Positions 3,002 through 61,266 are shown, counted from the stretch's first letter. The stretch is 64,000 bases of DNA from Patescibacteria group bacterium (GCA_028865095.1 JAGWLA010000001.1:47244-111243); one strand, 5' to 3'. Made by a program: numbers and translations. The notes: a model not told the origin generated them from the sequence alone.

Positions 3002-3658
3002 ATGGGCTGCACGGAATGTAAATACAACCGCATGATAGCCCTCATATACATCGTCATCCTCATATTCTCGGTCATCATCCATGAAGTCTCGCATGGCTAT
3101 ATGGCCGACCGTCTCGGCGACCCGACCGCCCGCCTCTCGGGAAGGCTGACCCTCGACCCGCTCAAGCATATCGACCCCATCGGCTCCGTCATCGTGCCGC
3201 TCGCCACCTATCTTCTCGGAGGATTCGCGTTCGGCTGGGCTAAGCCGGTGCCTTACAATCCTTATAATCTCAAGAACAAGCGCTTGGGCGAGTTCCTGAT
3301 CGCCGCGGCGGGCCCGGCCTCGAATCTCGTCCTGGCGCTGATCTTCGGCCTGGTCATACGGCTCGTCGCGAGCGGGGCCGTCTCTGTGGACGCGGCCGTC
3401 GCGGCTCCTTTCCTGACGGTCGTATCGTACGTGGTCGTCATCAACATAATCTTGGCGATATTCAACCTCATACCGCTGCCGCCTCTCGACGGGTCGAAGC
3501 TCCTATTCTCGATCCTGCCCGCTCAATACGGGCGTGCGCGCTATATCCTGGAAGCGTATGCGCCTTTCTGGGTCCTCATCGTGGTCTTCTTCCTTTGGCA
3601 GCTCGTCAGCCCGGTCATACCTTTCATCTTCAATCTATTCACCGGCATCGGCTCCTGA
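3002..3658 (+). CDS. M50 family (site-2 protease-like) membrane zinc metalloprotease
   Basis: HEVSHG (HExxH) motif inside a TM helix, multi-TM, about 210 aa. Start could be ATG 3002 or 3032. Confidence 0.75.
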   Translation: MGCTECKYNRMIALIYIVILIFSVIIHEVSHGYMADRLGDPTARLSGRLTLDPLKHIDPIGSVIVPLATYLLGGFAFGWAKPVPYNPYNLKNKRLGEFLIAAAGPASNLVLALIFGLVIRLVASGAVSVDAAVAAPFLTVVSYVVVINIILAIFNLIPLPPLDGSKLLFSILPAQYGRARYILEAYAPFWVLIVVFFLWQLVSPVIPFIFNLFTGIGS

Positions 3659-4892: not shown

Positions 4893-5288
4893 TCAGCGCC
4901 TTGTCAGCGCCGTCATGGCGATCGGTCCAGGGCCGCCCATGAGGGTGCCGCCGTCCGACCGCCTGAATTGCTTCCGAGGCAGGCGTATCCACCGGTTTGA
5001 GAGCGGAAGGAATAGCGCCTCGGATGGCACTGATCGCGACACTGCCAACCCTTCGTACTCGAGCTTCTCGAGCGAGCTCTCGACATCGGCGGCTTTCAGC
5101 CGCCCGCGGATGTGGACCTCCATATCTTGCTTGATCGTCCCGATGTCCTCCCATTCCGGACGCAGCACCTCCATGAAGTCGTAGTGGCCTACTTTGACGA
5201 AGCGCTGCGCGTGGAGATATGCGATCAAGCCGACGGCCGATGCCGCGAAGATGGCTAGGTATACGTCAGACGGGTCTATAGCGCTCAT
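4893..5288 (-). CDS. Hypothetical small membrane protein
   Basis: N-terminal TM helix and high GC3 in this frame. No recognisable family. Confidence 0.35.
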   Translation of the reverse strand: MSAIDPSDVYLAIFAASAVGLIAYLHAQRFVKVGHYDFMEVLRPEWEDIGTIKQDMEVHIRGRLKAADVESSLEKLEYEGLAVSRSVPSEALFLPLSNRWIRLPRKQFRRSDGGTLMGGPGPIAMTALTRR

Positions 5289-5424
5289 AGCAATGTTCTC
5301 TGTGCTTATTTGCGGGAAGGGTAGCCCGGAGGCCGGGCTCTGTCAATGCTCAGAGACGCAGTCGACGGCTCGCCCGAAGGCTGCTATGATTGCTGCATAA
5401 CAACGTACGAGCTAATCCAATAAC

Positions 5425-5868
5425 ATGAGCGCGATCAAAAACTATGCGGCAGGCTTCTTCATCCTCGCGGTGGTGGTCTTGGCAGCCATATCCATCCTCG
5501 GCGTCTGGGATATCCTCAAAGGCGATGTCATCACCAAATCATTCCAGACCCTCGGCCTCTTGGCCTTCGTCGCCGCGATCGTCATGATCGCCGGCCGGGC
5601 CATGGATTCGAGGTCGGAGGCGGTCTATGTTCCCAGCCCTGTCTGGGCGAGCCTGCGCAAGGGCACGCTCGGCCTCCTGATCGCGGCAGTATCCATACTC
5701 GCGCTTCTCGGCATACTCTCCATCTGGGACATCATATCCGACCAGAACGTGCTCTTCAGGTCGATCGGTTCCGTCGCTATCCTGGCTTTCTCCGCCCTGA
5801 TCATCGTCGGCACATGCAAGACCATGGAAGGGGACAAGAAAGCCTCGATGCCGCCGGCTTCACAGTGA
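5425..5868 (+). CDS. Hypothetical 4-TM membrane protein with an internal duplication
   Basis: Two repeated halves (ILGVWDILKGD... and ILSIWDIISDQ...), each with two TM helices. Confidence 0.5.
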   Translation: MSAIKNYAAGFFILAVVVLAAISILGVWDILKGDVITKSFQTLGLLAFVAAIVMIAGRAMDSRSEAVYVPSPVWASLRKGTLGLLIAAVSILALLGILSIWDIISDQNVLFRSIGSVAILAFSALIIVGTCKTMEGDKKASMPPASQ

Positions 5869-5882
5869 ACCTTCGTTCACCT

Positions 5883-5888
5883 ATACTG
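5883..5888 (+). promoter_or_regulatory. TATACT -10 box 5 nt upstream of the dinB ATG (leaderless pattern)
   Basis: CCTATACTGTCTGGATG. Confidence 0.4.
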
Positions 5889-5893
5889 TCTGG

Positions 5894-7153
5894 ATGCGCA
5901 GGCATGACCCAGACTTCCCGAAAGCCATAGTGCATATCGACGGAGATTCGTTCTTCGTCTCGTGCGAGCTGACTCGCCGGCCGGAGCTGAAAGGCCGGCC
6001 ATGCGTGACGGGAATGGAGCGGGGGATCGCCACAGCGGCTAACCCGGAGGCCAAAGCCCTCGGCGTCATCAGGGGCATGCGAGTCAGCGACATCCGGCGC
6101 CTCTATCCGGGAACAGTCATCCTCGAGTCCGACTACGGGCTCTATCGCGATATCGCCGGCAAGATGTACGAGATCGTCCGGCGCTACGCTGACGACGTGG
6201 AAGAATACTCGATCGACGAATGCTTCGCTGATCTGACCGGCCTCGACCGCCCGTCCCATACGACTTACGAAGCCATGGCCCGGGCCATCCAGGCCGACCT
6301 TCACCGGGAGCTCGGAGTGACATTCGGCGCCGGCCTCGGGGTCAATAAGGTCACCGCCAAGATCGCCTCTAAATGGCGCAAGCCGGCAGGCTTCACGGTC
6401 ATCCGTCGCGGGGATATCCCGCGCTTCCTCGAGGCTCTGCCTATCGGCAAAGTCTGGGGCATCGGAGGCCGCACGACGGTCTCTCTCCGCAGCCTCGGCA
6501 TCGTCACCGCTCTCGACCTGGCCCGCAAGGACCGGGCCTGGGTGGACGAGCGGTGCGACAAGCCTTTGCGCGAGATATGGGAAGAATTCCAGGGCGCGTG
6601 CGTCAAGCCGGTGGTCGGAGGCTCCGAGCAGCACGGGTTCGCGTCCGTCCAGCGCACCCGCACTTTCTGGCCCGCCACTGCCGACCCGGCGTTCCTTTGG
6701 TCCCAGGTCTCATCGCACGCGGAAGACGCATGCGAGAAGCTGCGCGCCGGCGGCCGGCTCGCGCGCCGCGCTTCGATCATGCTGAAGACCCGAGATTTCT
6801 CGTATCTCAGGAGCGAAGCGGAGCTCCCCGATCCGACGGCCGCTCCCGAAGAGGTCCTTCGGGCCCTTCGGCCGCGCTTCGAGGCGCTCTTCCGCCCTGG
6901 CTTGGCCTATCGGGCGAGCGGCATCTCGCTTCATGGCCTTGCCGTCGAAGAAGCCATGACCGGGAGCTTGTTCGCTCCGCCGGAGCGCCTCAGCAAGTCT
7001 CGCGCCGTCCATGCCGCCGCCGACCGCTTGGCGGCCCGCTTCGGCAAGGGCATCGTTTTCCTCGGATCCAGCTGGCAAGCGGTCAAAGAGGGCAGGAAGA
7101 GCGGGCGGCCGCGGGAGAAGCCGTCGCGGGGAGGGATCAGGTTCCTGGAGTGA
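5894..7153 (+). CDS. dinB: DNA polymerase IV (Y-family translesion polymerase)
   Basis: IVHIDGDSFFVSCE and SIDECFADLTG catalytic motifs of the DinB/UmuC family. Confidence 0.85.
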   Translation: MRRHDPDFPKAIVHIDGDSFFVSCELTRRPELKGRPCVTGMERGIATAANPEAKALGVIRGMRVSDIRRLYPGTVILESDYGLYRDIAGKMYEIVRRYADDVEEYSIDECFADLTGLDRPSHTTYEAMARAIQADLHRELGVTFGAGLGVNKVTAKIASKWRKPAGFTVIRRGDIPRFLEALPIGKVWGIGGRTTVSLRSLGIVTALDLARKDRAWVDERCDKPLREIWEEFQGACVKPVVGGSEQHGFASVQRTRTFWPATADPAFLWSQVSSHAEDACEKLRAGGRLARRASIMLKTRDFSYLRSEAELPDPTAAPEEVLRALRPRFEALFRPGLAYRASGISLHGLAVEEAMTGSLFAPPERLSKSRAVHAAADRLAARFGKGIVFLGSSWQAVKEGRKSGRPREKPSRGGIRFLE

Positions 7154-55249: not shown

Positions 55250-55696
55250 ATGCCCGCCCTCATCGATCATAAGAAAGCCCGCTTCAACTACGAGATCCTC
55301 GAGACATTCGATGCCGGGGTGGAGCTTTCGGGCACGGAGGTCAAATCATTGAAGAAAGGGCAGGGCGCGCTCGACGGCGCCCATGTCATCGTCAGAGGGG
55401 GAGAGGCCTATGCCGTAGGGATGTTCGTCCCGCCGTACCAGGAGAAGAACGCGCCCGCCGGCTATGACCCGCGGCGGAACCGGCGGCTCCTGCTTTCCCG
55501 TAAGGAGATCGCGCGGCTCGCGTCTCTGGAGGGTGGCAGAGGTTTGACAATAGTGCCAATTTCAGTGTACACTAAGGGACCTCTGGTCAAGATCTCGGTA
55601 GCGGTGGTGCGCGGCAAGAAGGCTCATGACAAGCGCGAGTCCATCAAGCGCCGCGAATCGGACCGCGAGATCTCCAGAGCGATGAAGGATCGTTGA
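55250..55696 (+). CDS. smpB: SsrA-binding protein SmpB
   Basis: NYEILETFDAGVELSGTEVKSL...NRRLLL matches SmpB. Confidence 0.92.
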   Translation: MPALIDHKKARFNYEILETFDAGVELSGTEVKSLKKGQGALDGAHVIVRGGEAYAVGMFVPPYQEKNAPAGYDPRRNRRLLLSRKEIARLASLEGGRGLTIVPISVYTKGPLVKISVAVVRGKKAHDKRESIKRRESDREISRAMKDR

Positions 55697-55705
55697 AAGA
55701 CCAAT

Positions 55706-56068
55706 GGGGATGATCGGCATAGACAATCGCCGGCGTCCGTTCGTGCGGCTCGAGCTCCGATGACTCGTAAATCCGTCGGAAACTCCGAAATGCCAACGTC
55801 AAATCGCCGTATTTCTCGGCACGCGACTTCGCATTCGCCCTCGCTTAAGTAGGGCGCGTCTCCTCGAGGGGATCCATACCTTGAGGCTGATGTCATAACC
55901 CGGATGTAGGGCAGGGCGCCTTCTCACCGCCCGGCCCGAAACAATGAGATCGCGGCCATGCGTTCTGCTCGATCTTCGAGCATGTCCGTCAGACTTAAGA
56001 TCGCGCTACAGCCGTAGAGTCGTCCGGTTCGCCTCGATTGCACGCGGGTTCGATTCCCGCCATCTCCA
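55706..56068 (+). ncRNA. ssrA: tmRNA (SsrA), immediately downstream of smpB
   Basis: 5' GGGGAUG acceptor pairs with 3' CAUCUCC + A. tRNA-like T-arm GGGUUCGAUUCCC. Resume region AAAUGCC AAC GUC... gives the predicted tag ANVKSPYFSARDFAFALA ending at UAA. CCA is not encoded. Confidence 0.8.
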
Positions 56069-56079
56069 CAACGACAAAA

Positions 56080-56109
56080 ATGACCCGCACTGCCGTGGGT
56101 CATTTTTTG
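56080..56109 (+). terminator. Intrinsic terminator after tmRNA
   Basis: ATGACCCGC-ACTGC-CGTGGGTCAT hairpin followed by TTTTTT. Confidence 0.6.
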
Positions 56110-56224
56110 GCGTCTGTGTGTACAGATGGCGGGATGAAGAAGGCCGGAGCGATGCCGAGCCAGCAGGCGAGGCCGCGAGGCGGGGTCGCGGCCGAGCGAG
56201 GCTGGCCGAGCGAGAGCCGTGACC

Positions 56225-56246
56225 GATTCCCGCCATCTCCACAACA
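56225..56246 (+). repeat. Second direct copy of the tmRNA 3'-terminal 22 bp (CGATTCCCGCCATCTCCACAAC), plus an inverted partial copy at 56125-56135
   Basis: Exact 22-bp match to 56051-56072. AGATGGCGGGA at 56125-56135 is the reverse complement of TCCCGCCATCT. Confidence 0.75.
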
Positions 56247-56324
56247 CAAAAAAAACGCACGAACAGTGCTATACTAGGGAAGTCCTCGCGGACTTTTAAT
56301 ATAGGCAGATAACAATATATCCAT

Positions 56325-56546
56325 ATGAACCCGAACGAAGGATCCAATAACACCAACGGCTCGAATACGTGCTCGTGCAAGTGCGGCCATCACAAGCTCA
56401 TGCCGATCGCGGTCATGCTCATCGCCCTCGACATCCTCCTGGCCAATTTCGGCGTCTACAGCTGGTACGTGGCCACCATCATCTGGCCGATCCTGCTCAT
56501 CGTCGCCGCTTCAGGCAAGCTCTGCAAGTGCTGCGGGTGCAAATAA
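56325..56546 (+). CDS. Small Cys-rich membrane protein (CSCKCGHH ... 2 TM ... CKCCGCK)
   Basis: 73 aa with two hydrophobic helices flanked by Cys clusters. TATACT-like box upstream at 56268-56275. Confidence 0.45.
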   Translation: MNPNEGSNNTNGSNTCSCKCGHHKLMPIAVMLIALDILLANFGVYSWYVATIIWPILLIVAASGKLCKCCGCK

Positions 56547-56567: not shown

Positions 56568-57839
56568 ATGACCACGCCAGAGCTCGTCGCATTCATCAAG
56601 GAACAGAAAGCCAAGGGCGTGCCGCGCGAAGCGATATCGGCCATGCTCTCGGGGCAAGGCTGGACGGTCGCCGACATCGAAGAGGGGATGGCGACCGCCG
56701 AGCCGGCGCCAGCCCCGTCATCGTTGCCGCCTGTCCCGCCCGCTCCGGCGGCCCCTGCCATGCGGCCGGCTATGCCGAGCGCTCGGGCTCTCTCGCCGCT
56801 CTCGTCGAGGCATGCCCACGGCGCGAAGCTCTTCGCGGCGATCATCGCCGCCATCGTCGTCTGCCTCGGCGGAGCGGGCGCGTATGCGTACTATCAGCTG
56901 GTGGTCGCGCCGACGCCCTCGGCATCGGAGCTCATAAGCCAGGGCATGGCGAACACATTGGGCAATATAAGCTCGGCCCGCTTCGAGGCGACCACCACGG
57001 GGACGGTCTCGGGCGCGTCCATCGCGGGGAATCCGCCGTTCTCGTCCTCGTTCTCTTTCGAGGCGGCGGGATCCTTCAGCGGCTCCGTCGTCGACGGCGC
57101 CCCTTACAACAAGCTGTCGTCCGACATCAAGGCACATGCGACGTTCGATGTAGGGACGAGCACCGGCTCTCTGGCCGTCGATGCCAAGGCCATCGTCATC
57201 GGGAAAGACTCGTATCTCTATATCAACGACGCTTCGGTCTCGTACCGTTCGTCCGACCCGAAGCAGGCGTTCGTCCAGGGGATGGTCGGAGCGGTGAACG
57301 GCTTCCTGCCCTCGTTCGAAGGGAAGTGGATACTGGCTCCGGCCGCCTCTTCGACGGTCGCCCAGCCGGCATTCGATGCGGCTGATGTGGCGGCGATGCA
57401 GAGCTATATCAAAAGCTTGGGCTATGTGCGCTCGGCTTCCGTCGTCGGGAGCGATTCGATCGGCGGAGTCCCGTCATATCATGTCGCGGCCTCTCTTCAG
57501 GATGACGGAGGGTTCGCTTCTCTCGTGCGCTCGCTCATGGTGAAGCGCGAGCCGTCGCTCGCCACCACCCCGGCATTCGAGAAGGGCATGGCGAGCTTCA
57601 AAGCGGCGTCGGAACAGCCGATCAGCCTCGATCTGTGGGTAGGGAAGGCTGACGGGCGCATCCATCGGATATCGCTGTCGGGGATCTCCTATGCGGACGC
57701 TTCTACGGGAGCGGCCGTATCGTTCGATACCGACATCGAGCTCGATCAGCAGGGCCAGCCGGTGGACATAGCCGCTCCTCAAGGCGCAGTGACCATGCAG
57801 GCGCTCATCCAGAGCATGTTCGGCGGCCGGCCTCTATGA
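56568..57839 (+). CDS. Hypothetical membrane-anchored protein (N-terminal soluble domain, Pro-rich linker, TM, large extracytoplasmic domain)
   Basis: TM helix AAIIAAIVVCLGGAGAYAYYQLVV. No family recognised. Confidence 0.5.
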   Translation: MTTPELVAFIKEQKAKGVPREAISAMLSGQGWTVADIEEGMATAEPAPAPSSLPPVPPAPAAPAMRPAMPSARALSPLSSRHAHGAKLFAAIIAAIVVCLGGAGAYAYYQLVVAPTPSASELISQGMANTLGNISSARFEATTTGTVSGASIAGNPPFSSSFSFEAAGSFSGSVVDGAPYNKLSSDIKAHATFDVGTSTGSLAVDAKAIVIGKDSYLYINDASVSYRSSDPKQAFVQGMVGAVNGFLPSFEGKWILAPAASSTVAQPAFDAADVAAMQSYIKSLGYVRSASVVGSDSIGGVPSYHVAASLQDDGGFASLVRSLMVKREPSLATTPAFEKGMASFKAASEQPISLDLWVGKADGRIHRISLSGISYADASTGAAVSFDTDIELDQQGQPVDIAAPQGAVTMQALIQSMFGGRPL

Positions 57840-61182: not shown

Positions 61183-61256
61183 CCGCCCCTAGCTCAGTTG
61201 GTTAGAGCATCGAGCTTATACCTCGAGGGTCCTTGGTTCGAATCCAAGGGGGCGGA
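61183..61256 (+). tRNA. tRNA-Ile with anticodon UAU (reads AUA)
   Basis: Cloverleaf: acceptor CCGCCCC/GGGGCGG, U8, D-arm GCUC-AGUUGGUUA-GAGC, anticodon stem UCGAG/CUCGA, loop CUUAUAC (U33, anticodon UAU, A37), variable loop GGGUC, T-arm CUUGG-UUCGAAU-CCAAG, discriminator A. CCA not encoded. Confidence 0.8.
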
Positions 61257-61266
61257 CAGCATAGAG

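Follow-up and report, generated by a model that had tools for sequence, protein, structure and literature searches.

A conserved, folded unit without an open reading frame bounded by a repeated ssrA 3' end in Paceibacteria-like bacteria

Why should the 3' end of a transfer-messenger RNA (tmRNA) gene recur, in sense and in antisense, directly downstream of the gene itself? The question is raised by the ssrA gene in a 64,000-nt stretch of DNA from a Patescibacteria group bacterium (GCA_028865095.1, JAGWLA010000001.1:47244-111243), the whole of which is referred to hereafter as the window. An initial annotation took the arrangement for an att-site-like scar, either the remnant of an integrated element that had been largely deleted or a structure like a miniature inverted-repeat transposable element (MITE). 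The best reading of the present analysis is that the element is the stretch between the repeats itself and not a decayed island. A 22-nt repeat encloses a single member of a conserved family of folded units of ~150–180 nt, which lack an open reading frame (ORF) and occur in Paceibacteria-like members of the Candidate Phyla Radiation (CPR). We tentatively regard the unit as a miniature, non-autonomous, structured integrative unit targeting t(m)RNA 3' ends, an interpretation to which we give a little less than an even chance. A repeated t(m)RNA 3' end is as a rule taken for the footprint of an island or prophage; here the footprint itself is a conserved folded unit of ~170 nt.

The repeat and the unit that it bounds

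The unit and the gene that precedes it comprise the following features.

55706..56071, + strand: ssrA, encoding a one-piece tmRNA (Rfam RF00023, 106.2 bits, E=1.7e-40, full-length match to model positions 1-374)
56051..56072, + strand: direct repeat copy 1, from halfway along the T-loop to the ssrA 3' end plus 4 nt
56071..56113, + strand: terminator-like hairpin T1, an inverted repeat (-20.2 kcal/mol) between copy 1 and the inverted copy
56119..56134, + strand: ssrA 3' end in inverted copy (16 nt), complementary at 88% to either direct copy
56119..56245, + strand: folded unit proper, from the inverted copy to copy 2, with a closing helix and internal hairpins
56135..56223, + strand: purine-rich, G+C-rich interior with the conserved blocks CCGGAGC, GCGAGGCGG, CGAGCGAG (twice, 14 nt apart) and CCGTGAC
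56224..56245, + strand: direct repeat copy 2, an exact 22-nt match to copy 1, pairing with the inverted copy over 11 continuous base pairs

The tag encoded by the window tmRNA, read off the Rfam alignment, is ANVKSPYFSARDFAFALA. The 3' strand of the acceptor stem stops at 56067 and is followed by the discriminator A at 56068, which is probably the mature 3' end of the tmRNA; CCA is not encoded, positions 56069-56071 being CAA. The repeated 22-mer, CGATTCCCGCCATCTCCACAAC, is made up of the last 18 nt of the mature tmRNA and 4 nt of trailer. It starts at the C of TT|CGATT in the T-loop, ends 4 nt beyond the discriminator, and occurs exactly twice, at 56051-56072 and 56224-56245. Two matches with three or fewer mismatches were observed as compared with 0.02 expected, and none of 100 shuffles reached two. 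Similarity between the copies stretches to 30 nt at 90% identity. The copies are spaced 173 nt apart, leaving 151 nt between them with a G+C content of 66–72%.

The exact recurrence of the last 22 nt of ssrA, on which the initial annotation was built, is therefore real, with copy 2 lying one base lower than had been given. The inverted partial copy is likewise present and proved to be longer than the 11 nt reported: it is a 16-nt sequence, TGTACAGATGGCGGGA, complementary to the 3' strands of both the acceptor stem and the T-stem, and its exact 11-mer lies at 56124-56134, again one base lower. The stem of T1 occupies 56076-56107, preceded by A5 and followed by T6, so that the hairpin is terminator-like on both strands. 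The intervening DNA had been described as small, GC-rich and non-coding, and this held. No conserved ORF was found in the 151 nt between the repeats; the ORFs there are out of frame in the closest homologue, L162 (relatives' loci are denoted by L numbers). Coding by the interior was ruled out, the frame across copy 2 reading RFPPSPQ in the window and DSRHLHQ in L162. Nor is the layout an assembly artefact: a long contig surrounds the region, and relatives assembled independently have the same arrangement.

Conservation of sequence and fold

The ssrA flanks of 30-odd CPR relatives were collected by way of SmpB, the SsrA-binding protein, and a SmpB scan of JGI metagenomes yielded at least eight useful relatives, among the matches listed. 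The window SmpB, for which an exact-protein look-up gave no record, is 100% identical to a protein named SmpB with a PF01668 domain, which comes from a metagenome-assembled genome at NCBI (236-kb contig). Beyond that identical protein, no SmpB exceeded 82% identity to it, and its best relatives belong to Patescibacteria (CPR) of the Paceibacteria/Parcubacteria type.

A common layout was found in at least eight Paceibacteria-like lineages (the window, L162, L166/167/169, L086/087, L163, L003, L004 and L007): the ssrA 3' end, a terminator hairpin, an inverted copy of the gene's own 3' end, a purine-rich interior, and a second direct copy starting from (TT)CGATT. The layout is complete in L162, L166/L167 and L086/L087, whose SmpB proteins are, respectively, 79%, 76% and 65% identical to that of the window. 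Only part of it can be seen in L163, L003 and L169, whose contigs end within the unit; in L004 a run of Ns (5034-5045) takes the place expected for copy 2, and L007 has a degenerate copy 2. The same layout was seen in none of ~40 ssrA loci from outside the CPR.

Aligned from the T-arm to copy 2, the window and L162 were 78.6% identical over 206 nt. The interior alone was 79% identical (z 9.3), as compared with 82% for the tmRNA, while the DNA past copy 2 could not be aligned (z -0.3). A comparison of L086 with L166 gave a similar result, with 77% identity in the interior (z 6.2) and a z of 0.0 in the flank. A unit of ~150–180 nt is kept, in sequence and in fold, across lineages whose SmpB proteins are 55–79% identical to that of the window. 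Motifs common to its variants are GGC.GAGC(C)AT.TG near the left end and CC(T/G)GT(G/A)AC beside copy 2. L162 has a homologous T1 hairpin with compensatory changes, and L166 has a clear terminator immediately past copy 2. Copy 2, unlike copy 1, ends in CCA in L162 and L086.

The unit exists in three variants: A (the window and L162), in which the inverted copy is contiguous; B (L086, L166, L163 and L003), in which a 9-bp hairpin, H1, splits the inverted copy and a small hairpin, H3, precedes copy 2; and C (L004 and L007). In the window, the region 56110-56255 folded far better than its shuffles on either strand (z -5.6 on the plus strand and -6.5 on the minus strand), and the folded unit itself (56119-56245) has a minimum free energy of -70.7 kcal/mol. 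The consensus fold of variant B (L086 against L166) contains 41 pairs, with no broken pair; 10 are compensatory, and three have changed on one side only (all to G-U on the plus strand). Column shuffles gave 3.2±1.5 compensatory pairs, with none of 300 reaching 10, and an energy of -16 kcal/mol as compared with the observed -56.5 kcal/mol. H1 is paired at 100% in four lineages, and five of its nine pairs are compensatory. In variant A (the window and L162), the consensus contains 31 pairs, six of them compensatory, with an energy of -41.4 kcal/mol against -21.3±3.4 kcal/mol for column shuffles; here the closing helix is clear and the internal fold weaker, and the helix stops short of the T-loop. 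The plus-strand consensus was more stable than the minus-strand consensus in both variants, at -56.5 versus -50.3 and -41.4 versus -31.7 kcal/mol.

The inverted copy follows the host gene. In eight lineages it covaries with each lineage's own ssrA T-stem (CCCGC, CTCTC, CCCTC, CCGCC or CCCCC). When it was set against ssrA across lineages, 89.6% of cells were paired and four of 12 pairs were compensatory, a score reached by none of 500 shuffles; position 72 (of the pair 1:72) is unpaired in six of the eight lineages. The helices are kept through compensatory changes, and the unit is in this respect a conserved structured element, be it RNA or single-stranded DNA.

No Rfam 15 family matched the unit at its gathering score, and known ribozymes and small RNAs were ruled out on these results. 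Sub-threshold matches to tmRNA_permuted (24.6–31 bits against a gathering score of 47) were obtained in the window, L162, L086 and L163, and are explained by a T-arm together with any hairpin that closes the acceptor strand. Two further candidates were rejected. A minus-strand antisense RNA would be blocked by the L166 terminator beyond copy 2, and the plus strand folds better; a primer-binding site of retroviral type disagrees with an inverted copy that complements the gene's trailer, not CCA, and with a position 72 that is usually unpaired.

Assemblies tend to break at this site. Contigs end inside the unit in L163 (3408), L003 (5052) and L169 (1332), and the L164 contig (end 3413) stops 3 nt past ssrA. 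Breaks inside the unit are expected of repeated DNA; together with the run of Ns in L004 they suggest repeats or strain variation there. In practice, such units break metagenome contigs at ssrA, and can mislead both tmRNA annotation and island finders that search for displaced tRNA fragments.

Distribution, surroundings and possible origins

The unit is patchily distributed. It is absent from L161, L165, L172, L254, L001, L083, L085 and L002, some of which are close to carriers: the SmpB of L161 is 91% identical to that of unit-bearing L166, and the SmpB of L165 is 87% identical to that of L162. L172 and L254 belong to the synteny group of the window, with the gene order L20-L35-IF3-PLD-smpB. 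In both, the whole unit including the terminator is missing, and ssrA runs straight into a promoter-like flank that resembles the flank past copy 2 in L086 and L162. This pattern would fit an insertion from repeat to repeat; vertical descent of the unit with repeated loss is also possible. Two of the unit-free loci, L165 (~3340-3420) and L083 (~1151-1238), share another conserved sequence of ~75 nt directly 3' of ssrA, GAGCCTCTGGGAGG.TAAATACCCT...GACAGAATAGCGGTTTCAAA.CCGCT, which may be another trailer element or a structured terminator. In two CPR relatives that are more distant, small GIY-YIG-like ORFs, read by eye, lie 3' of ssrA (L005, ~5410-5660; L006, ~5155-5395), and L005 also has an inverted copy of its own ssrA trailer (CACTCGACTCGCT / AGCGAGTCGAGTG) together with repeats of the GAGCGAG type.

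A second target gene was revealed by a covariance model built from variant B. Away from ssrA, the model matched L003:1425-1552 on the minus strand (41 bits, E=3e-8), while 795 kb of control loci gave no match above 18 bits. The match lies directly behind a tRNA-Ile(TAT) gene (1575-1647). Its inverted segments, ATGCCCGG and GGACTCGAA, and a 45-nt exact direct repeat are copies of the 3' end of that tRNA plus its trailer. The fold has the same architecture of closing helix, H1, P3, P4 and H3 (z -6.7), and its H3 (GAAGCTGTAAGCTTC) is identical to the H3 of L086. Next in tandem come a second unit, which has diverged, and a third, which is truncated; the periods are 148 and 161 nt. The family is therefore found at two different t(m)RNA genes, each unit dressed in the sequence of its local gene and able to stack. 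No unit was found behind the other tRNA genes of the collected CPR loci, including the tRNA-Ile(TAT) gene of L006. A tRNA-Ile with the anticodon TAT (UAU) is unusual for bacteria; its gene directly follows ftsH in the window and L003, and L006 has one too (1416-1489).

Relatives carry mobile DNA at this end of ssrA. The SmpB of L088 and that of L004, which bears the unit, are 94% identical, and the two loci are collinear as far as the final base of ssrA. From there L088 carries, on the reverse strand and overlapping the ssrA end, a gene for a 538-aa large serine recombinase (Resolvase, Recombinase and Zn_ribbon_recom domains). Homologues are similarly placed in L022 and at ten sites in a Parcubacteria population (L244-L253), and the recombinase of the islands at this site is DsiB/CcrB-like. 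The L088 and L022 loci end inside the island. A second ssrA copy, which would be the attR of such islands, was not found within 10 kb in L250, L244 and others, the best match being 15/22. Among viral contigs in IMG/VR, 71 carry the ssrA 19-mer, and in four of them (L201, L205, L215 and L236) the identity starts exactly at CGATT, as it does in the window; the inverted copy is present in none of the 71. The type C interior motif had six unrelated AT-rich matches in viral contigs, about the chance expectation.

Two side observations concern these islands. In L022 (Gottesmanbacteria), a LOOT RNA (RF03000, 66 bits) lies at 6839-6953, just past the large serine recombinase of the ssrA island, which suggests that LOOT, an orphan RNA, can be island cargo. 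In L004 (Yonathbacteria), the interval 5086-6454 just past the unit contains, on the reverse strand, DUF6941, an Xre-type helix-turn-helix gene and a Gp49-like (toxin-type) gene, which may be island remains beside the unit.

The att-type duplication proposed in the initial annotation is borne out by a repeat boundary that agrees with those of the Dehalococcoides ssrA islands and of the four viral contigs, by recombinase islands at the same site and by close relatives without the insert. In that annotation, a duplicated segment that belonged to a conserved structured trailer in relatives, with no sign of mobile DNA, would have spoken against the scar. The relatives show the same duplicated segment within a conserved structured trailer; they also show signs of mobile DNA, in the form of tandem copies at a tRNA gene, patchy presence and recombinase islands.

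If the unit is integrative, it would behave much as a MITE or a cis-mobilizable element does, and would enter by recombination at or beside the ssrA T-loop, either site-specifically or in the manner of Campbell through short homology. Catalysis would be supplied in trans, for which the DsiB/CcrB-like large serine recombinases of relatives are candidates by location only. The unit would bring its own copy of the ssrA 3' end together with a strong terminator, so that the gene stays intact and a second 3'-end copy is left 173 nt downstream. The right end would re-create the target, allowing further units to stack in tandem. Antisense and sense copies pair, closing a multi-branch fold that may be of use to the element, as a substrate for recombination, or to the host, where it could be a terminator, an insulator or an RNA. 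Because its closing helix stops short of the T-loop, the window copy may by now be fixed.

Several observations weigh against an integrative unit. A standard att model explains neither the inverted copy nor its covariation with the host gene, and a double-stranded circle of 150–180 bp is a poor recombination substrate. No recombinase gene lies in or near the unit, a tblastn search of the window with the L088 recombinase found nothing, and no integrase domain was present in the 20 window proteins covered by a non-exhaustive check; recombinases that look cognate were seen in other lineages only. The reverse-strand recombinase of ~520–540 aa that abuts attL in Dehalococcoides has no counterpart in the window. 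The 64-kb window contains a single copy of the unit, with none behind its own tRNA-Ile(TAT) gene (61183-61257, with recG 10 nt downstream). The unit sequence was not found in the viral contigs, where the type A and type B interior motifs had no match. L161 retains T1 and lacks only the segment from the inverted copy to the second terminator of L166, which is not a clean repeat-to-repeat excision. The variant types track synteny groups, fitting vertical descent with losses. Finally, the internal fold of variant A is weakly supported, since its six compensatory pairs were also reached by 17 of 300 shuffles.

The main rival is an RNA encoded by the host, which would be a structured part of the ssrA 3' trailer transcribed by read-through past T1. 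We consider this somewhat unlikely as the explanation of the unit; it is compatible with the mobile-element interpretation and does not exclude it. The closing helix, as a copy of the acceptor and T-stem strand of tmRNA, would then form an end like that of a tRNA minihelix, for which the direct repeat would be needed as a tmRNA-like 3' end. RNase P and RNase Z could release such an RNA; alternatively, the segment could act as an insulator or processing module. The conserved fold with its compensatory pairs, the restriction of one-sided changes to G-U on the plus strand, the better folding of that strand and an interior conserved like tmRNA are all consistent with an RNA. So are the CCA ends of copy 2 in L162 and L086, a distribution compatible with vertical descent, and the difference between L161 and L166, which is exactly the unit plus the second terminator that follows copy 2 in L166. 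However, a good intrinsic terminator (T5-T6) separates ssrA from the unit, a promoter would have no room, close relatives dispense with the unit, and tandem diverged units behind a tRNA gene would be odd for a dedicated tmRNA-linked RNA. Its hairpins consist almost entirely of Watson-Crick pairs, and the unit has no match in Rfam at the gathering score.

Local rearrangement without selection is very improbable: template-switching at the terminator hairpin would have produced the inverted copy, slippage would have duplicated the 3' end, and gene conversion would keep the copies alike. It would account for the continuous palindrome of L004, L007, L086 and L163, which extends from T-loop to inverted copy by way of trailer and terminator, lineage-specific trailer bases included, and for the concerted change of the three copies. 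It leaves unexplained the homologous interior common to units linked to ssrA and to tRNA-Ile, as well as the inserted covarying hairpins. A neutral scar, in which attL and attR were left after most of a larger island had been deleted, is very improbable, even though the direct repeat is of att type, relatives have recombinase islands at the same site and phage-like or toxin–antitoxin-like genes (HTH_3, Gp49-like) lie just past the L004 unit. Independent deletions would not converge on the same layout and a size of 150–180 nt in at least eight lineages, and the interior is 77–79% identical, with a fold conserved through compensatory changes, where the flanking intergenic DNA has a z of ~0. The neutral scar is thus already largely refuted by conservation. 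The idea of a remnant put forward in the initial annotation is left without support, because a neutral scar would not show conserved sequence and fold. Its MITE-like alternative came nearer the mark, although the unit departs from MITEs in the features described below. It is scarcely credible that the unit forms part of a two-piece (permuted) tmRNA gene, or that it is inserted in a T-loop like an intron. The former would agree with the sub-threshold tmRNA_permuted matches, which extend over the T-arm, acceptor strand, loop and inverted copy, and group I introns are known in tmRNA T-loops. Yet the unit is preceded by a complete one-piece tmRNA that has both tag and T-arm, no intron family matched, and a group I or group II core would need far more room than the unit offers.

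An integrative unit targeting t(m)RNA 3' ends thus remains the interpretation that we prefer. It might further represent an undescribed class of protein-less integrative units of 150–180 nt at t(m)RNA 3' ends, in which paired sense and antisense target copies make a fold competent for recombination or otherwise functional, and which form tandem arrays in CPR; we think this unlikely. Such a class may be analogous to integron cassettes or to the hairpin attP of CTXphi, or may be an RNA-guided or RNA-mediated element. Should the units be mobile, few known site-specific integrative elements would be as small, and they would offer a tractable model of insertion directed by mimicry of the target in both sense and antisense. 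If they are RNA, they would constitute a new structured RNA linked to tmRNA and tRNA in a phylum whose non-coding RNAs are barely charted.

Around ssrA and the unit, the window contains three further features.

55250..55696, + strand: smpB, encoding the SsrA-binding protein (148-aa ORF), immediately 5' of ssrA
56278..56297, + strand: small hairpin followed by TTTT, with a fold energy of -9.1 kcal/mol, 33 nt past copy 2
56325..56546, + strand: ORF for a Cys-rich membrane protein of 73 aa, the next gene, outside the unit

A sigma70-like site, TTGACA-18-TACACT (10/12), at 55544-55573 within the 3' part of smpB, ~130 nt 5' of ssrA, may be the ssrA promoter. ARAGORN called no tmRNA in the window, L162, L165 or L088, while the tmRNA genes of the window, L162 and L163 scored ~97–109 bits with Rfam; automated annotation can therefore not be relied on for tmRNA in these CPR genomes. 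The hairpin at 56278-56297 may be a second terminator, as in L166, or a piece of the leader of the next gene. The Cys-rich protein, with the motif CSCKC...CKCCGCK, had no record in an exact-protein look-up, and neither it nor the 423-aa ORF at 56568-57839 had a Pfam match. Relatives carry other genes 3' of ssrA, and the gene content from ssrA to ftsH varies by lineage.

Comparison with known systems

MITEs, palindrome-associated transposable elements (PATEs), and repetitive extragenic palindromes and the mosaic elements that they form (REP/BIME) are small and non-coding, with inverted-repeat or hairpin ends, and are served by an enzyme in trans; PATEs and REP/BIME derive from elements of the IS200/IS605 type. 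The unit resembles MITEs and PATEs in being small and non-coding and in having an inverted repeat (16 nt, 88%). It differs in lacking a short target-site duplication, the flanking repeat being 22 nt of gene sequence, in having ends that copy the 3' end of the adjacent gene, and in having no dispersed copies in the window or in the other loci, where it is linked strictly to t(m)RNA 3' ends.

Folded single-strand recombination sites include the attC sites of integron cassette arrays and the attP hairpin of CTXphi. In outline the unit is like these: a stem reproduces the target, a strand-specific fold is conserved while sequence varies, and the unit is small, as cassettes that often lack an ORF can be, and stacks in tandem. 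The likeness to attC is one of function only; the unit has no R and L boxes (RYYYAAC...GTTRRRY; the stem ends were read by eye) and shows no link to IntI or Xer, and no tyrosine recombinase domain was found among the window proteins checked. It differs from both attC and CTXphi in that the stem of the window variant falls short of the presumed crossover in the T-loop, and in that its repeat is 19–45 nt long, not 6–7.

On the RNA side, the systems for comparison are the tRNA-like minihelix ends of RNAs and the small RNAs derived from 3' trailers. The closing helix shares with minihelix ends the 3' strand of the tmRNA acceptor and T-stem, the discriminator and, in L162 and L086, CCA, and the RNA gene in whose trailer the unit lies is highly transcribed. 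It differs in having no T-loop, no G3-U70 in most copies (A3-U70), a 1:72 pair that does not form in six of the eight lineages, and a terminator upstream.

The ssrA islands of Dehalococcoides have 20-bp repeats, accrete in tandem downstream of the gene and use DsiB, a large serine recombinase of the CcrB type found in staphylococcal cassette chromosomes (SCC) (PMC3146451). The CPR unit likewise has the ssrA 3' end as its target, and CPR relatives have genes for homologous recombinases that adjoin ssrA on the reverse strand. Dehalococcoides islands measure kilobases and contain a recombinase and cargo, whereas the unit spans 173 nt and has no ORF, an inverted target copy and a conserved fold. 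A cis-mobilizable element (CIME) is an att-flanked element that has lost its former genes for integration and transfer (PMC6323972). Like a CIME, the unit keeps its attL-like and attR-like repeats intact with no genes inside. CIMEs, however, are decayed integrative and conjugative or integrative and mobilizable elements of kilobase size with no conserved structure, whereas the unit is 10–100 times smaller, and its sequence and fold are conserved across distant lineages and two target genes.

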